A DNA stretch of 64,000 nucleotides from the IMG/VR virus record IMGVR_UViG_3300042940_001591, one strand, 5' to 3'. Positions 29,477 to 35,849 of this stretch are shown here, piece by piece. The first letter of the stretch is position 1, and each line of letters opens with the position of its first letter. The notes under the pieces are model-generated. The model did not search any database. It was not told the origin of the DNA and saw only the letters and a program-made list of their open reading frames with translations. Position numbers and translations under genes: made by a program. This DNA is from a virus (lineage: Duplodnaviria; Caudoviricetes).

Positions 29477-29551
29477 AGGGTAATGGACTAATGGCTAAGT
29501 CACTTGCTTTGGGAGCAAGGCATCATGGAGGTTCGAGTCCTCTTTACCCTA
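29477..29551 (+). tRNA. tRNA-Pro(TGG)
   Basis: AGGGTAA/TTACCCT acceptor, CTTGC-TTTGGGA-GCAAG, TTCGAGT T-loop. Confidence 0.88.
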
Positions 29552-29556
29552 CAAAC

Positions 29557-29628
29557 GCTGATTTAGCTCAGAGGTAGAGCACGAAGCTGTTAACTTCGGG
29601 GTCCAGATATCGTAATTCTGAATCAGCG
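29557..29628 (+). tRNA. tRNA-Asn(GTT) with an atypical T-loop
   Basis: GCTGATT/AATCAGC, CGAAG-CTGTTAA-CTTCG, G73; T-loop reads ATCGTAA. Confidence 0.8.
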
Positions 29629-29634
29629 CAAAAT

Positions 29635-29706
29635 GCGTGTGTAGTTCAATTGGTAGAATTTCGGTCTCCAAAACCGAAGATGAAGGTTCGAGTCCTTACA
29701 TGCGTG
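29635..29706 (+). tRNA. tRNA-Trp(CCA)
   Basis: TCGGT-CTCCAAA-ACCGA, TTCGAGT, G73; G-U-rich acceptor stem. Confidence 0.85.
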
Positions 29707-29713
29707 CAACAAT

Positions 29714-29793
29714 ACCCGAGTGGTGGAATGGTATACACAGCGGTCTTAGAAACCGTGTCGAAAGGCGTGTCGGTTCGAGTCCGACCTTGGGTA
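29714..29793 (+). tRNA. tRNA-Leu(TAG)
   Basis: ACCCGAG/CTTGGGT, GCGGT-CTTAGAA-ACCGT, long variable arm. Confidence 0.92.
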
Positions 29794-29798
29794 CATAT

Positions 29799-29869
29799 TG
29801 TCCTTTAGTATAGTGGTAGTACAGATGGTTTTGGTCCATCTAGCTGTGGTTCGAGCCCACGAGGGACAA
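29799..29869 (+). tRNA. tRNA-Gln(TTG)
   Basis: TGTCCTT/AGGGACA, GATGG-TTTTGGT-CCATC. Confidence 0.9.
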
Positions 29870-29874
29870 CATAT

Positions 29875-29947
29875 TGCGGGGAGGAGGGTACCCGACCAGT
29901 CTCATAAGCTGTGTCTTTTCCGGTTTCGACTACCGGCCCCGCAACCA
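29875..29947 (+). tRNA. tRNA-Met(CAT) with a reduced D-arm and encoded CCA
   Basis: TGCGGGG/CCCCGCA-ACCA, CAGT-CTCATAA-GCTG, CCGGT-TTCGACT-ACCGG. Confidence 0.75.
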
Positions 29948-30097
29948 AAAAGATTTTAAAATAATTTGGAATATCTGAAATTATTTATTATCTTTGTTAA
30001 ACAATGGTTGATTGGGATTTAACGGGGCTAGCGAATAGCGAGAAACGCCAATCATAAAAACAGATGTCCACACCCCCATCTTCTGTTTTCCATAGTA

Positions 30098-30171
30098 GCC
30101 CGAATAGCTCAGCTGGCCAGAGCAACTGATTTGTAATCAGTAGGTCCTCAGTTCGAATCTGAGTTTGGGCT
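30098..30171 (+). tRNA. tRNA-Thr(TGT)
   Basis: GCCCGAA/TTTGGGC, ACTGA-TTTGTAA-TCAGT. Confidence 0.92.
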
Positions 30172-30173
30172 CA

Positions 30174-30349
30174 ACAGGTGACGACGGTGGTGTAACCCCA
30201 CTGTCTATGAATCCCAAAAGATCCGTCTGACTCGCGAGGTAGGGCGGTGAGGGTAGAGTTACTATAAGTCGGGAATAATTACCCCAATACGAAAATGTAA
30301 CCGCAGACTATGTCTGTTATGATGTACATAGATGGTACGAAAAACCTGT
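30174..30349 (+). ncRNA. Unclassified multi-stem RNA between tRNA-Thr and tRNA-Ser
   Basis: ACAGGT/ACCTGT closing stem; GACGGTGG/CCACTGTC; CAGAC/GTCTG; GC-rich relative to its surroundings; no ORF. Confidence 0.5.
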
Positions 30350-30437
30350 AACTTTTTGAAACTAACTCAACGAGGACTTTGTCAACCAGAGCAGTGACTC
30401 GGATGGTGCAACTTAAGGTGAGTTAGAATCAATTTTT

Positions 30438-30522
30438 AGAGAGTTGGCCGAGTGGTTGATGGCACCAGTCTTGAAAACTGGCATACTGAAAGGTATCTGG
30501 GGTTCGAATCCCTAACTCTCTG
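30438..30522 (+). tRNA. tRNA-Ser(TGA)
   Basis: AGAGAGT/ACTCTCT, CCAGT-CTTGAAA-ACTGG, long variable arm, G73. Confidence 0.92.
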
Positions 30523-30698
30523 CAAGAATTAACTAAGATACTGTAAAACCAGTAGGTGGTGATTCCAGATTTATCTGTGAGCCATTTAAACCCTGATAGC
30601 AATGTTAATTTTTAATATATAATATTTTTTTTATATTAAGATATTGATTTCCAACATTTTATTCTGTATATTTGTCATATTATTAATATTTATAATAT

Positions 30699-31001
30699 AT
30701 GATAGATAAAATCACATTATCGTTAATGTTATTTTTTAACACATTAACATCATCTATCGACCCAAGTCTTTCTGATGAAAGAAAGTCAGTCAATCAAATA
30801 AAAAAAGAGATTAAATCCCTTGAAAGAAAGATTGAATGGGTTGAAGTAACAGATGAGAATTACGCTAGCAGGGCCGTCAAAACCAAAGAAATCACGGACG
30901 AGATTACCAAATTGAATGGTAAAATTGTAAAGATTGAGAAGGTTGCAAAATTAAAAGAGAAATGGGCAACGGAAGATTCCTTGTCCAAATCAAAAAAATG
31001 A
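30699..31001 (+). CDS. Hypothetical coiled-coil protein with a hydrophobic N-terminus
   Basis: 100-aa ORF behind TATATTTG (30667). Confidence 0.6.
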   Translation: MIDKITLSLMLFFNTLTSSIDPSLSDERKSVNQIKKEIKSLERKIEWVEVTDENYASRAVKTKEITDEITKLNGKIVKIEKVAKLKEKWATEDSLSKSKK

Positions 31002-31447
31002 AAAAAATTTTTTTAGTGCTAACGTTACTTTTGGGAGTGGAAGTCGTAGCAAATGGACAAGAGTGGTTTATAACCGCCACTCGAAAAGGCGGTCCATCAG
31101 ACGGTTATATAACAGGTGGTTTTATGAAAAAAGGTTGGGGGTTTTATGCGGGACTTCCATACGGTGAAATAAAAACCCCAAATGGCGGAATTTCAATTCC
31201 CCCTGGTGTTAACACCAATACAGGAAATGTGTCCGATAACATGAAGTTTGGTGTTCTTAGACAATTAAAAGAAGACAAGGCGATTGTTGGATTTGGATTA
31301 CAGCCAACACTTGATGGTAATAAACCAAATTTTCTTATAATGTACAATCCACTTAGGCCAAGTACTGTTATAAATTTATGGACAATTGGTAATTTAGTCG
31401 GTAGTGATTTTACATTAGGACTTGGATTATCGTATAAAGTAAAATAA
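30998..31447 (+). CDS. Small exported, probable outer-membrane beta-barrel protein
   Basis: MKKIFLVLTLLLG signal; terminal LGLGLSYKVK; start moved to 30998. Confidence 0.7.
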   Translation: MKKIFLVLTLLLGVEVVANGQEWFITATRKGGPSDGYITGGFMKKGWGFYAGLPYGEIKTPNGGISIPPGVNTNTGNVSDNMKFGVLRQLKEDKAIVGFGLQPTLDGNKPNFLIMYNPLRPSTVINLWTIGNLVGSDFTLGLGLSYKVK

Positions 31448-31568
31448 AATAAAATTTTAGTTAAGTTAATTCCCTGAACAAACTAAAAAAATTGTTCGGG
31501 GTTTTTTTATATCACATTTTTTGTTTATGTTTGAGTTATAGTTCTTTGATGTATTGGAAAAACAAAAT

Positions 31569-31653
31569 GCCTGAGTGATGAAATGGTATACATGACAGAC
31601 TTAAAATCTGTTGAGCAGAAACGCTCGTGCGGGTTCAAGTCCCGCCTCAGGTA
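31569..31653 (+). tRNA. tRNA-Leu(TAA)
   Basis: GCCTGAG/CTCAGGT, ACAGA-CTTAAAA-TCTGT, long variable arm. Confidence 0.92.
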
Positions 31654-31657
31654 CAAA

Positions 31658-31763
31658 TGTAATGACTCAGAAATGAGTGACGGAACGGACGCTACGTATG
31701 AAATGGAAACTTTTGATGCACGTACAAAGGTGCTGATTAGAAACAAACCGTACAGACATTACA
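31658..31763 (+). ncRNA. Unclassified structured RNA between tRNA-Leu and tRNA-Arg
   Basis: TGTAATG/CATTACA closing stem; ACTC/GAGT, ACGG/CCGT and TACGT/ACGTA inner stems. Confidence 0.5.
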
Positions 31764-31770
31764 TTAACTT

Positions 31771-31844
31771 GGTTCCGTAGCTCAGTTGGATAGAGCAACA
31801 TCCTTCTAAGATGTGGGTCTTTGGTTCGAATCCAAACGGGATCA
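31771..31844 (+). tRNA. tRNA-Arg(TCT)
   Basis: GGTTCCG/CGGGATC, ACATC-CTTCTAA-GATGT. Confidence 0.92.
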
Positions 31845-31854
31845 CGTAAATTTT

Positions 31855-31928
31855 GGACTTGTAGCTCACTCGGTTAGAGCGGCACACTCATAATGTGAAG
31901 GTAGTAGGTTCGATTCCTACCTGGTCCA
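31855..31928 (+). tRNA. tRNA-CAT (Ile2 or elongator Met)
   Basis: GGACTTG/CTGGTCC, GCACA-CTCATAA-TGTGA; identity cannot be resolved by eye. Confidence 0.85.
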
Positions 31929-32120
31929 CTTTTAAGTTATGGGTCTCCGATGGAAGTCCGCAAGAAAAATAGATGTTTTTCATCCATCAAAAAATTACCA
32001 TAGAGACCGCTAAATCGAGTTAGTGAAAATCTACATTCTCATTGGTAATCATTCATGACACCTACCGGTGGTTCCACACTAAGGTTATGTGAGGCTTCGG
32101 CTGATAAAAGGGTGTTATAT

Positions 32121-32271
32121 TGTAGTGTGACGAAATTGGCAAACGTACCCTCCTGTCTCGGGGGTGTGGACAAAGAAATAGATTGATAATATTAGGGGGT
32201 AGACCACCAGCTTGCAAGCGTCATGTTATCAGTTGAATCTCCACTTGGTGGTTCGAACCCATCCACTACAG
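32121..32271 (+). tRNA. tRNA-Asp(GTC)-like with an 82-nt variable-arm insertion
   Basis: TGTAGTG/CACTACA-G73, CCCTC-CTGTCTC-GGGGG, GGTGG-TTCGAAC-CCATC; insert at 32165-32246. Confidence 0.8.
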
Positions 32272-32335
32272 CAAATTAAATTTTGTTTTTTGAAATTTAT
32301 TATGTATATTTGTAAAACAATTAAAGATTAAAATT

Positions 32336-32557
32336 ATGAAATGTATTAAGTTAATTAAAGCAAGTAAAGGTCATGAAATTGGTCAAGTTTTAAGAGTAGA
32401 AGATAACGAAGCGGATTTAAGAGTTAAAGGTGGTTATTGGTCATTTGCACCAAAAACCGAATATAAACTTTACAAAAATCCAGACTATAAAACTAAGAAA
32501 ACTGATGATAAAGTTTCTTCTAAAAAACAATTAAAGAAGAAAAAAACTTCTGAATAA
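32336..32557 (+). CDS. Small basic hypothetical protein
   Basis: 73-aa ORF behind TATATTTG (32305). Confidence 0.65.
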   Translation: MKCIKLIKASKGHEIGQVLRVEDNEADLRVKGGYWSFAPKTEYKLYKNPDYKTKKTDDKVSSKKQLKKKKTSE

Positions 32558-32669
32558 AAAAAAATAAAAAATATTTGATGATTTATTTTGTTTTTTAAAA
32601 TATTCATTGTATATTTGTAAAAGAAATCACAAAGGTGGTTTCGTAGTAAGAAAAAGTTCTTTGATTTAA

Positions 32670-33540
32670 AAATATTGGCCGCCTATGGTCGATTAAAATA
32701 AACCATGAAAGTGGGATAAAGTGACAAACCCTTGGTTGGGGTAAGTTGCGGTTTCAGTAATGGAACTTGAGTAGGCAAGTGGAGTATCGTTGAACCTTAA
32801 GTACTGAGGGTAACACTTTAGGGAAAGTGGTTTGATGACTAAGCAATCCGAGTTGTTTGGTTGAGGTGGGGACACCAATAAGAATAATCCATAGAGTTAT
32901 TGTGAGAAGTATCGTTATCCGACTTTACAATTGCGTGATTCAATATAATGGGAATCTTAAAACCGAAAGGTATGGTGAAGTACGAGTGGTGTCGTTATCA
33001 TCCTTTATTAAACTCTACCAAGGGTTTAGTTCTGAAGGGGTCCAAAAATATGGTAGCAGGGATGTTACAGAGAGTAGTTTAGTATCGAGTCGCTCAAAAG
33101 GTGGCTTGGCTAGGTGACGAACCACTACTTTCCAAATTCGGATAACTAAATTTTGTTAATTTTGGTTTAACAACTTAAAATCATACAAGAAGAAGTGTTC
33201 GTCAGTCGTTGTAGACAGGTGGCTACATAGTCGTGAGGGGTTCACGGCCACAAAGGGTCTCAAGCCCAATGTGATTTTTAAAAAAGTTCTCTAAACCCGC
33301 AAGGTTGAATCAGGGAGGCATCTTTGATGAGTAATGAGTATTAAAAGAGTATATAACGACTCAAGGATTGGTTAATCTAATTGACCGCCGCTGATTGGTA
33401 CTACTCAAAAGGTAGTGGAAAAGGGAAGAAACAAATAATGTCCCTAAGTCAATTATTAAGACATGTATTCTCAGTGTTTTATTTTCTTTGTTTAGTAAAA
33501 CAAAGTGGTGGAATTGGAACGTTTTAAAACCGTTCGGCCC
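32670..33540 (+). ncRNA. Giant structured ncRNA, GOLLD-like
   Basis: About 0.85 kb without a credible ORF; GC-enriched; own promoter (32610) and terminator (33551); many hairpins; long-range pairing 32803-32812/33466-33475; lies next to tRNA genes in a phage. Confidence 0.65.
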
Positions 33541-33550
33541 AAAAAAGATT

Positions 33551-33577
33551 AGTCAGATTTATTCTGACTTTTTTTTT
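33551..33577 (+). terminator. Intrinsic terminator
   Basis: AGTCAGA-TTTAT-TCTGACT followed by a T-run. Confidence 0.75.
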
Positions 33578-33610: not shown

Positions 33611-34360
33611 ATGAGAATAGTTTGTATATCCGACACACATGCCTTACATAGAGGTATGACCCACGAATTACCACAAGGTGATGTGTTAATACATGCGGGT
33701 GATTTATCAAATAGAGGTGGAGAAAGAGATGTGACAGAATTTATTCATTGGTTTCAAAACATAGAAGGGTTTGACTCTAAAATTTTTATTTCGGGTAATC
33801 ACGATTTCTGTTTTGAGCGGGTTAATCAACCGCACCATAAAGGCGACTACGATTGGTTAAACAATCTAATGACTCCTGAAAATCTATCTCAATCCAATGT
33901 GACTTATTTGGAAGATAATTTTATGACTATTGAGTCACCTGAATTTTCAAGACCAATTAAAATCTACGGAAGTCCTTGGCAACCAAATTTTTATGATTGG
34001 GCTTTTAACTTACCAAGATTTGGGGTTGAGTTACAAGAAAAGTGGAATATGATTTCAGAAGATACTGATGTATTAATAACACATGGACCACCAAATGGAT
34101 ACGGAGATTTAGTTAATAATTGGCGACAACCAAATACAAACGTAGGTTGTGAGTTGTTACGAAATAGAATAGAAGAAATAAATCCATTAGTAAGTGTATT
34201 TGGTCATATTCACGAAGGTTATGGTGTTGAGCTCGGTAATAAAACATTATTCGTAAATGCATCAACTTGTAACTCAAAATACGAACCAATAAATAAACCA
34301 ATAATCATAGACTTACAAGAAGTTTATGGTGAAATAATTGCAACTCATGTCGAAATATAA
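33611..34360 (+). CDS. Calcineurin-like metallophosphoesterase
   Basis: CISDTH, HAGD, GNHD, LITHGPP, FGHIHE. Confidence 0.92.
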   Translation: MRIVCISDTHALHRGMTHELPQGDVLIHAGDLSNRGGERDVTEFIHWFQNIEGFDSKIFISGNHDFCFERVNQPHHKGDYDWLNNLMTPENLSQSNVTYLEDNFMTIESPEFSRPIKIYGSPWQPNFYDWAFNLPRFGVELQEKWNMISEDTDVLITHGPPNGYGDLVNNWRQPNTNVGCELLRNRIEEINPLVSVFGHIHEGYGVELGNKTLFVNASTCNSKYEPINKPIIIDLQEVYGEIIATHVEI

Positions 34361-35030
34361 TGGACCAATTAGTGTTGTCATTTCAACACGAAAAATAGAT
34401 GATACGTATTTAAAACACGTTGAGAAAATGTTTTCACACCCTAAAACTCAAATATTAATTTATGAGAATGATGGTGTGGATTCATTACCCAAAATTTATA
34501 ATTTAGGATTACAAGATTCCGAAAATGATATTGTGGTGTTTATGCATGACGATCTTATTTTGGAAACCCCTAATATCACACCAAAAGTTATTAGATTATT
34601 TGAGGAGAATCCTGAATATGGCATAATAGGATTGGCCGGTACTAATAATTTAATGAGTGGAATGTGGTGGCAGGATAAAGAATCTATGTATGGTGTTGTT
34701 GGTCATGAACATCAAGGTAAAAGACATGTAAATCACTACTCAAAACAATCATTTGGTGACAAACCAAAAGAAGTGGTTATTGTTGATGGGTTATTTATTA
34801 TGGTTCATAAAGATAGAATTAAACATAAGTTTAATGAAGAATTTACAGGGTTCCATTTCTATGATTTACCGTTTTGTGTTGACAACCATTTAGATGGGAT
34901 TAAAGTTGGGGTTACCACTAAAATAATGGTAACACATAAATCCATTGGTATGGTAAATAAACAATGGGAAAAAAATAAGTTGTTTTTTGAGGCATTATAC
35001 GAAAAACACTTCCCTTTAAGGGTTAATTGA
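34338..35030 (+). CDS. GT2-like glycosyltransferase
   Basis: IYNLGL...VFMHDDL...VIVDGLFI...FHFYDL. Confidence 0.8.
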   Translation: MQLMSKYNGPISVVISTRKIDDTYLKHVEKMFSHPKTQILIYENDGVDSLPKIYNLGLQDSENDIVVFMHDDLILETPNITPKVIRLFEENPEYGIIGLAGTNNLMSGMWWQDKESMYGVVGHEHQGKRHVNHYSKQSFGDKPKEVVIVDGLFIMVHKDRIKHKFNEEFTGFHFYDLPFCVDNHLDGIKVGVTTKIMVTHKSIGMVNKQWEKNKLFFEALYEKHFPLRVN

Positions 35031-35452: not shown

Positions 35453-35849
35453 GGGGGTGCTTGGCATTGATTTCAGGTATCAGGGGTAAGTGGCACGTAG
35501 TCAGACTTCATCTATGACTTAAATCTATGGTGGAAAATTCTAGACGGCAACGTTTATAACAACATGGAAATTGCAGGTTTACTTGCAACTTCTAACGTAG
35601 CAGTAGCCTAAGGCGAAACTACAATCGGGTCGACTGGCATGTAACCTAGGAACAGAAGCCTTCAAGGTGTAACACCACCCGAAGAGTGTTGGAGCAAATC
35701 TGACGGCTCTTGAAAATCCGGTTAGGAACAGTATTGATGGTTTCCTGTAATTAACCTTCTATTTGTCTGTTATGAACTAATAGAATAAACGTGTAGTCAT
35801 TTATTGTTGAACAGGAAAGACACGGGTTCGAGTCCCGTCACCTCCACCA
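35453..35849 (+). ncRNA. ssrA: tmRNA
   Basis: GGGGGTG/CACCTCC-ACCA acceptor with G3-U70; GGTTCGAGTCCC T-arm; internal tag ORF 35546-35611; TACATTTG promoter at 35430. Confidence 0.93.

Follow-up and report, generated by a model that had tools for sequence, protein, structure and literature searches.

The DNA examined here, a 64,000-nt stretch of a Caudoviricetes phage (hereafter, the window), carries an element that has every arm of a tRNA-Asp and, at the place of the variable loop, a folded domain of 82 nt. This raises the question of whether the encoded RNA is a tRNA at all and, if it is not, what it does and where it comes from. An earlier note, made from the letters of this DNA, had favored a tRNA-scaffolded functional RNA over an ordinary tRNA-Asp, had offered a phage-made decoy and an unusual intron as explanations, and had named a decayed pseudogene or an assembly artefact as what would refute it.

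Anatomy of the element and its surroundings

The layout of the element in the window (Table 1) matched the minimum-free-energy fold as well as a direct reading of the letters. Intact acceptor, D, anticodon (GUC), and T arms and G73 were present where the earlier note had placed them and also in the minimum-free-energy fold, and U37 and the class II-like D arm were likewise borne out by the letters, with a D loop (GAAAUUGGCAGAC) of the Leu type that carries A14 and G18G19 and a D stem of 3 bp. In the variable arm, the 12-bp helix and the two distal hairpins stood as described, whereas comparison refined the proposed GTGGA/TCCAC base to a 4-bp GTGG/CCAC helix followed by a bulge and a 3-bp helix. 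The fold energy of the element alone was not better than that of shuffled sequences (z = -0.53), and the proof of structure is thus comparative rather than thermodynamic.

Table 1. Coordinates of the tRNA-like element, its parts, and neighboring features in the window.
Feature	Position	Strand	Remarks
tRNA-like element	32121-32272	+	full cloverleaf with 82-nt branched variable arm
Acceptor stem, 5' strand UGUAGUG	32121..32127	+	7 bp with 32264-32270
U8, G9, then class II (Leu-type) D arm	32128..32147	+	stem 32130-32132/32144-32146
Anticodon-like arm	32148..32164	+	stem CCCUC/GGGGG, 32148-32152 with 32160-32164
Anticodon-like loop CUGUCUC	32153-32159	+	G34 U35 C36 at 32155-32157, then U37, C38
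Variable-arm domain, 82 nt	32165..32246	+	every helix with compensatory changes
P1a, GTGG/CCAC, 4 bp	32166-32169/32241-32244	+	base of the variable arm
4-nt bulge	32170-32173	+	between P1a and P1b
P1b, AGA/TCT, 3 bp	32174-32176/32238-32240	+	covarying
A-rich internal loop	32177-32180 and 32235-32237	+	between P1b and P2
P2, 12-bp helix GATTGATAATAT/ATGTTATCAGTT	32181-32192/32223-32234	+	closed by conserved U.G and A-U
Distal hairpin	32195..32208	+	near-invariant GGGUWGACCAC
Perfect 10-nt palindrome GCUUGCAAGC	32210..32219	+	phage-specific hairpin or putative pairing site
T arm: GGUGG, loop UUCGAAC, CCAUC	32247..32263	+	T loop invariant, stem covaries
Acceptor 3' strand CACUACA, G73 (32271), C74 (32272)	32264..32272	+	C74 invariant
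tRNA array, 10 tRNAs	29477-31929		Pro, Asn, Trp, Leu, Gln, Thr, Ser, Leu, Arg, Met; no Asp or Glu
GOLLD RNA (RF02032)	33070-33477		Rfam match, 304 bits; RNA cover 32636-33487
Terminator-like site	33551-33569		hairpin and T-run, after GOLLD
Calcineurin-like metallophosphoesterase (249 aa) and family 2 glycosyltransferase (230 aa)	33611-35030		between GOLLD and tmRNA
tmRNA (RF00023)	35453-35849		78 bits; ARAGORN tag peptide ATSNVAVA*

Phage copies of the element were located in tRNA islands. In a related phage contig (L003, 3712-6941), the corresponding array comprised 12 tRNAs in the same order, including a canonical tRNA-Asp and tRNA-Glu, and the phage of the window seems, from this comparison of gene order, to have lost both. 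The terminator-like site downstream of GOLLD raises the possibility that the tRNA island, the element, and GOLLD form one transcription unit. The 190-nt spacer upstream of the element (31930-32120) hardly differed among five related phage contigs and was covered by a 151-nt RNA-library contig; its fold was not better than that of shuffled sequences (z = -0.26), and Rfam gave no match. In 24 phage loci, a homologue of the phosphoesterase gene lay no more than about 2 kb from the element, on its downstream side in 22.

A host RNA family and its phage copies

A search with an exact word from the 3' part of the element matched six IMG/VR contigs, in two of which the base helix, the 12-bp helix, and the distal hairpin were all altered on both strands. 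Two looser patterns, one fixing only the anticodon arm and the T loop and the other only GGGUWGACCAC and the T loop, together recovered more than 160 phage loci in IMG/VR, and the second of them, applied to genome contigs, identified the element in at least 120 bacterial genomes. Judged by the organism names in their titles, the bacterial matches listed comprised 40 Chitinophagales, 35 Cytophagales, 25 Saprospirales, 15 unclassified Bacteroidota, and single strays. A covariance model (R1), built on 61 phage copies, matched bacterial chromosomes outside its training set over its full length, at 64-142 bits, and a scan of 151 evenly sampled Bacteroidota genomes with R1 revealed the RNA in 15; a sixteenth copy, in the genome G048, was cut by the end of a contig.

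The copy in the window, which is sequence-identical to the IMG/VR locus L004 and forms the first row of the R1 alignment, has the 7-bp acceptor stem of the family, opening with U1-A72 and G2-C71 and followed by G73 and C74, and shows all parts of the long-form arm (32166-32244), including the GGGUWGACCAC hairpin, as well as the family loop form NN-GUC-Y-C. One to five copies were present per genome, often in tandem, and in many genomes the long form stood beside a short form of 110-120 nt; in bacteria, these short paralogues lacked the GGGUWGACCAC hairpin. In Flammeovirga pacifica, five tandem copies were spaced at about 197 nt (G004:C1:4115687-4116630; loci L288, L290, and L240).

Common annotation tools did not report the element. 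ARAGORN, which called the ten tRNAs and the tmRNA in the window, did not call it; Rfam 15, searched at the gathering threshold and at E values up to 10, returned no match to it, RF00005 included; and nothing was called by Rfam at the gathering threshold on seven bacterial loci. A BLAST search of 31900-32400 against GenBank phages found no match, the nearest virus record (G001) was without the element region, and a literature search returned no description of the family. The element is a phage-encoded copy of an uncatalogued host RNA family that resides in the chromosomes of Chitinophagales, Cytophagales, and Saprospirales, and we consider it highly probable that it is both a real member of that family and a non-decoding tRNA-like RNA. 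The phage-made decoy of the earlier note does not agree with this origin, and a host gene family of Bacteroidota makes a purely anti-defence role as a decoy less likely. It would be a widespread RNA gene that is absent from Rfam 15 and from the papers searched, with copies in environmentally dominant bacteria of three orders and in their large phages. Since standard tRNA and RNA-family annotation misses this gene, the annotation of phage tRNA islands and of Bacteroidota genomes is incomplete.

Compensatory changes supported the structure on both sides of this relationship. Covariation of the insert across phages, which the earlier note had proposed as a check, was found at 24 of the 40 predicted pairs in the 61 phage copies. 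In 114 distinct bacterial copies, 31 of 40 pairs were compensatory and 93.3% of cells were paired, compared with 47-58% when the partners were slid by 1-3 columns, and none of 500 shuffles reached the observed pairing values. The 7-bp acceptor stem was found in all copies, with covariation at pairs 4-7 and without any variation at U1-A72 and G2-C71 in phage and bacterial copies alike; U3 was likewise invariant. The D stem covaried (ACG/CGT, UUG/CAA, AUG/CAU) around invariant U8, A14, and G18G19, and in some relatives the D loop contained an additional hairpin. No variation was seen in the T loop, G73, and C74 either; all copies ended in ACAGC, the following base was variable, and CCA was not encoded. 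Within the arm, the invariant positions were four adenines of the internal loop (A58, A60, A116, and A117 in element numbering), the U.G and A-U closure of P2, and, in long forms, GGGUWGACCAC, the closing pair of which covaried (G-C in 44 copies and U-A in 13). Judged by these compensatory changes, the element is a structured RNA gene, and an arm conserved in this manner agrees with the tRNA-scaffolded functional RNA proposed in place of an ordinary tRNA-Asp. Its class II body of the Leu type comprises every element that makes up the L-shape of a tRNA and bears, in addition, a conserved arm of 80-110 nt.

Loop composition, aminoacylation marks, and the asparagine question

The decoding loop of a tRNA carries U33 and a purine at position 37. 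Among 249 unique loops of the family, the GUC triplet was found in 244, position 33 was U in 79%, C in 16%, and A or G in 5%, position 37 was a pyrimidine in 248, and C38 was present in all but three; CUGUCUC, the loop of the window, was the commonest (126 of 249). Triplets other than GUC occurred solely in short forms, some of which had AUC or UUC instead. Positions 33 and 37 exhibited only a weak tendency to pair. For a pairing of GUC with the GAC of GGGUWGACCAC, no covariation was available because both are near-invariant, and no covariation was found between position 37 and the W of that motif; GUC persisted in short forms without the hairpin, and the confinement of other triplets to short forms is the sole hint of such a pairing.

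In bacterial tRNA-Asp, G1-C72 is strictly conserved, and throughout the family it was replaced by the invariant U1-A72. The strong determinants of aspartate identity are G73, G34, U35, C36, and C38, with G2-C71 as a minor one, and G1-C72 helps to position the 3' end in E. coli AspRS (PMC9976931). U1-A72 makes Asp-tRNA-Asn a substrate for amidation by GatCAB, whereas G1-C72 and U20a block this reaction (PMC9976931). The copy in the window has all five strong AspRS determinants as well as G2-C71. Long forms, this copy among them, keep the strong AspRS marks and the GatCAB pair U1-A72 while dropping the features that serve the ribosome, which points to an RNA that would be charged but non-decoding. 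Charging by AspRS itself appears to us about evenly balanced. Replacement of the pair that helps to place the 3' end in the E. coli enzyme counts against a charged carrier, and so do the AUC and UUC of short paralogues. Charging without decoding would make the RNA one of the rare tRNA-derived molecules in bacteria that are specialized for work off the ribosome.

The mechanism that we favor builds on these marks. The RNA would be matured like a tRNA, with RNase P cutting its 5' end and CCA being added at its 3' end, and the host AspRS would then load aspartate by reading GUC, C38, and G73, while the loop and the arm would keep the product off the ribosome. Taken up to this point, namely a charged, non-decoding carrier, the chain of steps is plausible, at slightly less than an even chance. 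As an off-ribosome aminoacyl carrier, the RNA would most likely be a substrate of GatCAB, which would amidate Asp to Asn by reading U1-A72; the variable arm could serve as a docking platform, and an AsnC-type regulator might control the route in the host. With a discriminating AspRS, such an off-ribosome route would let the cell use tRNA-dependent asparagine synthesis without the risk of mistranslation.

Comparison with known tRNAs and tRNA-like RNAs placed the family between several of them. The body resembles class II tRNAs, especially tRNA-Leu (RF00005), with the same 7-bp acceptor stem, 5-bp T stem, 3-bp D stem, and Leu-type D loop and a variable arm that likewise exits the core at positions 45-47, and R1 also matched RNAs of 83-87 nt, putative class II tRNAs, at 30-50 bits. 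Class II arms, however, have at most about 20 nt, whereas the arm of the family has 40-110 nt, is branched, and contains conserved motifs; in contrast to tRNA-Leu, the family carries G73 and GUC instead of Leu identity, a pyrimidine at 37, and a variable position 33. No counterpart of the variable arm was found in Rfam 15 or in a literature search. With canonical bacterial and phage tRNA-Asp (GUC), the element shares G73, G2-C71, G34 U35 C36, and C38, but it differs from them in having U1-A72 rather than G1-C72 and U37 rather than A37, as well as in its class II body and its arm of 82 nt. The tRNA-Asn of the indirect pathway, which relies on a nondiscriminating AspRS and GatCAB (the transamidosome of Thermus and Deinococcus), has in common with the family U1-A72 with G73 and an anticodon loop readable by AspRS, and, like Deinococcus and Thermus, RNA-bearing genomes have GatCAB beside AsnRS and GlnRS; the family differs from that cofactor in having GUC rather than GUU, the giant arm, a non-decoding loop, and AsnB-type genes in most of its genomes. 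Other tRNA-like modules with jobs beyond ordinary decoding include the tRNA-like domain of tmRNA and the bacterial Y RNA YrlA (PMC4201824); unlike the element, neither combines a complete cloverleaf and free acceptor end with an anticodon arm, and neither of these Rfam families matched the element. Allo-tRNAs and irregular cloverleaf tRNAs are also unusual, class II-type, and known from metagenomes and phages (PMC5389517), but the acceptor/T branches of allo-tRNAs are of the 8/4 or 9/3 type and their loops decode normally, in contrast to the 7/5 branch and the non-decoding loop of the element.

The neighborhood of the bacterial copies bears on the asparagine step. A gene for a 156-aa AsnC-like regulator was found divergently oriented about 170 nt upstream of the RNA in 71 of 119 bacterial loci, with a distribution that depended on the order (Cytophagales, 31 of 35; Chitinophagales, 30 of 39; Saprospirales, 0 of 25); in the Saprospirales loci, no conserved neighbor gene was found. 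The genes past the regulator differ between orders (SufB vs. an OppC-like permease), as do those downstream (an AMP-binding enzyme vs. TrmB), and the regulator and the RNA therefore constitute the conserved unit. The top NCBIfam model for the regulator was AsnC, whose score of 162 bits falls short of the equivalog cut-off (227), and the next Lrp-family model scored 75 bits. In E. coli, asnC is divergent from asnA; in these loci, the RNA occupies the place of asnA. The last four bases upstream of bacterial copies read A-Y-A-Y, and TTTG and TAnnTTT-like boxes lay just 5' of many Cytophagales copies, an arrangement that fits a promoter of its own with a very short leader.

Genes of amidation and asparagine synthesis were then compared between genomes. 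All 15 RNA-bearing genomes carried gatB and AsnRS, and 13 of them also carried GlnRS; with AsnRS and GlnRS both present, those 13 genomes have no canonical need for GatCAB. Among 23 clade-mates scored as RNA-less in the first scan, gatB was found in only two, one of which, G048, has the RNA after all, and gatB was absent from all eight RNA-less clade-mates with GlnRS and AsnRS that were tested. There were exceptions, as G009 and G014 possess gatB, GlnRS, and AsnRS without the RNA, and gatB was also common among RNA-less Bacteroidota. The overall pattern fits conversion of Asp to Asn on the RNA, but the co-occurrence of RNA and gatB may also reflect only a few lineages. AsnB-type synthetase genes above the family cut-off were detected in 12 of the 15 RNA-bearing genomes. 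AsnA was absent from all RNA-bearing genomes tested, which is uninformative as it is absent almost everywhere. Two roles were rejected on these counts: the presence of AsnRS in every RNA-bearing genome excludes the RNA as a stand-in for that enzyme, and the AsnB-type genes rule out the strong form of a role as the sole asparagine route.

Of the readings compatible with the data, an off-ribosome carrier on which Asp is converted to Asn is the most specific, and we put it forward tentatively, as less likely than not. The AsnB-type genes, the gatB-positive genomes G009 and G014 without the RNA, and the lack of an AsnC-like neighbor in Saprospirales all count against it. If true, it would represent a new way of separating tRNA-dependent amino acid synthesis from translation and would explain the retention of GatCAB despite the presence of AsnRS and GlnRS.

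The phage version and competing explanations

Phage copies differed from bacterial ones in one respect. A perfect palindrome of at least 6 nt directly followed the conserved hairpin in 115 of 122 phage copies, and one of at least 10 nt in 78, examples besides that of the window being GCCGGCCGGC and GCGCGC; at the same place in bacterial copies, a palindrome was found in 27 of 113, which is the shuffle level. Because a hairpin needs no self-complementary loop, the palindrome would point to pairing between two molecules, and these sequences suggest that phage copies pair up as in kissing-loop dimers. Large phages may supply their own dimerizing carrier and so keep the route running during infection. 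Neither gatB nor asnB was encoded by two complete 320-kb phages with the RNA, which leaves the benefit to the phage a presumed one, and no generally linked phage protein was found among the phage loci.

The foremost alternative to a charged carrier is a tRNA mimic that acts by binding, as a regulator, sponge, or decoy directed at proteins that handle tRNAs, e.g., AspRS, modification enzymes, or nucleases. In that case, the arm would offer another site for binding, and during infection the phage copy would compete or serve as a decoy. Such a role is in line with the conserved tRNA core and its non-decoding loop, the invariant unpaired bases of the arm resemble a contact surface for protein or RNA, C74 is invariant even though CCA is not encoded, and the phage-specific palindrome suggests an altered, dimerizing version. 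This explanation nevertheless leaves the five strong AspRS determinants and U1-A72 unexplained as exact invariants, along with the AsnC-like neighbor, and in its purely anti-defence form it fits poorly with a housekeeping-like chromosomal gene in three orders. We therefore regard binding without charging as possible but on the unlikely side.

A working elongator tRNA-Asp for GAY codons, in which the giant variable arm is merely tolerated, has in its favor the GUC triplet, G73, the full cloverleaf, and the position of the element in an island whose ten tRNAs include no tRNA-Asp. The element itself departs from an elongator in its U37, in a variable region of 82 nt instead of 4-5 nt, and in the absence of a tRNA-finder call, and the near-universal pyrimidine at position 37, the non-U33 in 21% of loops, and the other triplets of short paralogues extend this departure to the family. 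In L003, moreover, a canonical tRNA-Asp (A37, G1-C72) lies in the same array, beside the copy of the element, so the element is not simply the tRNA-Asp of the phage. Elongation is accordingly very unlikely as its function.

Equally improbable is a role as a partner or cargo of the neighboring GOLLD RNA nanocage, or of another phage RNA assembly, docked via the palindromic loop. According to one proposal, GOLLD cages hold tRNAs (bioRxiv 10.1101/2024.12.08.627333). In the window, about 360 nt separate the element from the GOLLD RNA on its downstream side, which lake RNA libraries contain in great abundance, with metatranscriptome contigs over 32636-33487 reaching summed depths of thousands to tens of thousands, and the palindrome is specific to phages. 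The element lies outside both the GOLLD match and the GOLLD RNA cover, however, and the family is chromosomal in bacteria, where no GOLLD was found in the seven loci scanned with Rfam.

The transcription data bear on the idea of an intron or mobile insert, which would be removed from the variable loop of a tRNA-Asp before the ends are ligated. Contigs of four lake RNA libraries covered 32117-32273, and one of 229 nt, which comes from a relative as judged by 15 differences, spanned the whole element without a gap; the ORF region beside it (32281-32493) had no cover by RNA-library contigs, although missing cover does not equal silence. The element is thus probably expressed, and the contigs provide weak evidence against splicing, since contigs can miss rare forms. 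The insert does sit exactly at the site of the 4-5-nt variable loop, and its removal would leave a plausible loop. Yet hundreds of copies, the chromosomal ones included, preserve the arm through compensatory changes, no intron or ribozyme family matched at E values up to 10, and U37 would persist after removal, so that the intron suggested in the earlier note is extremely unlikely. A decayed pseudogene or an assembly artefact would account for the silence of tRNA finders, but it is practically negligible in view of the compensatory changes in hundreds of copies, the RNA-library cover, and the presence of the same DNA in at least 14 lake metagenome runs, which by itself rules out faulty assembly. 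The reading that we retain is that of a structured, non-decoding member of a bacterial RNA family, which most likely draws on the charging machinery and not on the ribosome.

Two protein-coding genes were observed near phage copies. A lysine-rich ORF of 73 aa without a Pfam match (32336-32557) is situated between the element and GOLLD in the window, and was conserved downstream of the element in 20 phage loci. A 153-aa gene of the PF04308 family (RNase H-like, YkuK/DUF458; e.g., L015, 4946-5407), which is not beside the element in the window, occurred near it in 34 of 161 phage loci, at a median distance of 186 nt and downstream in 28 of the 34.
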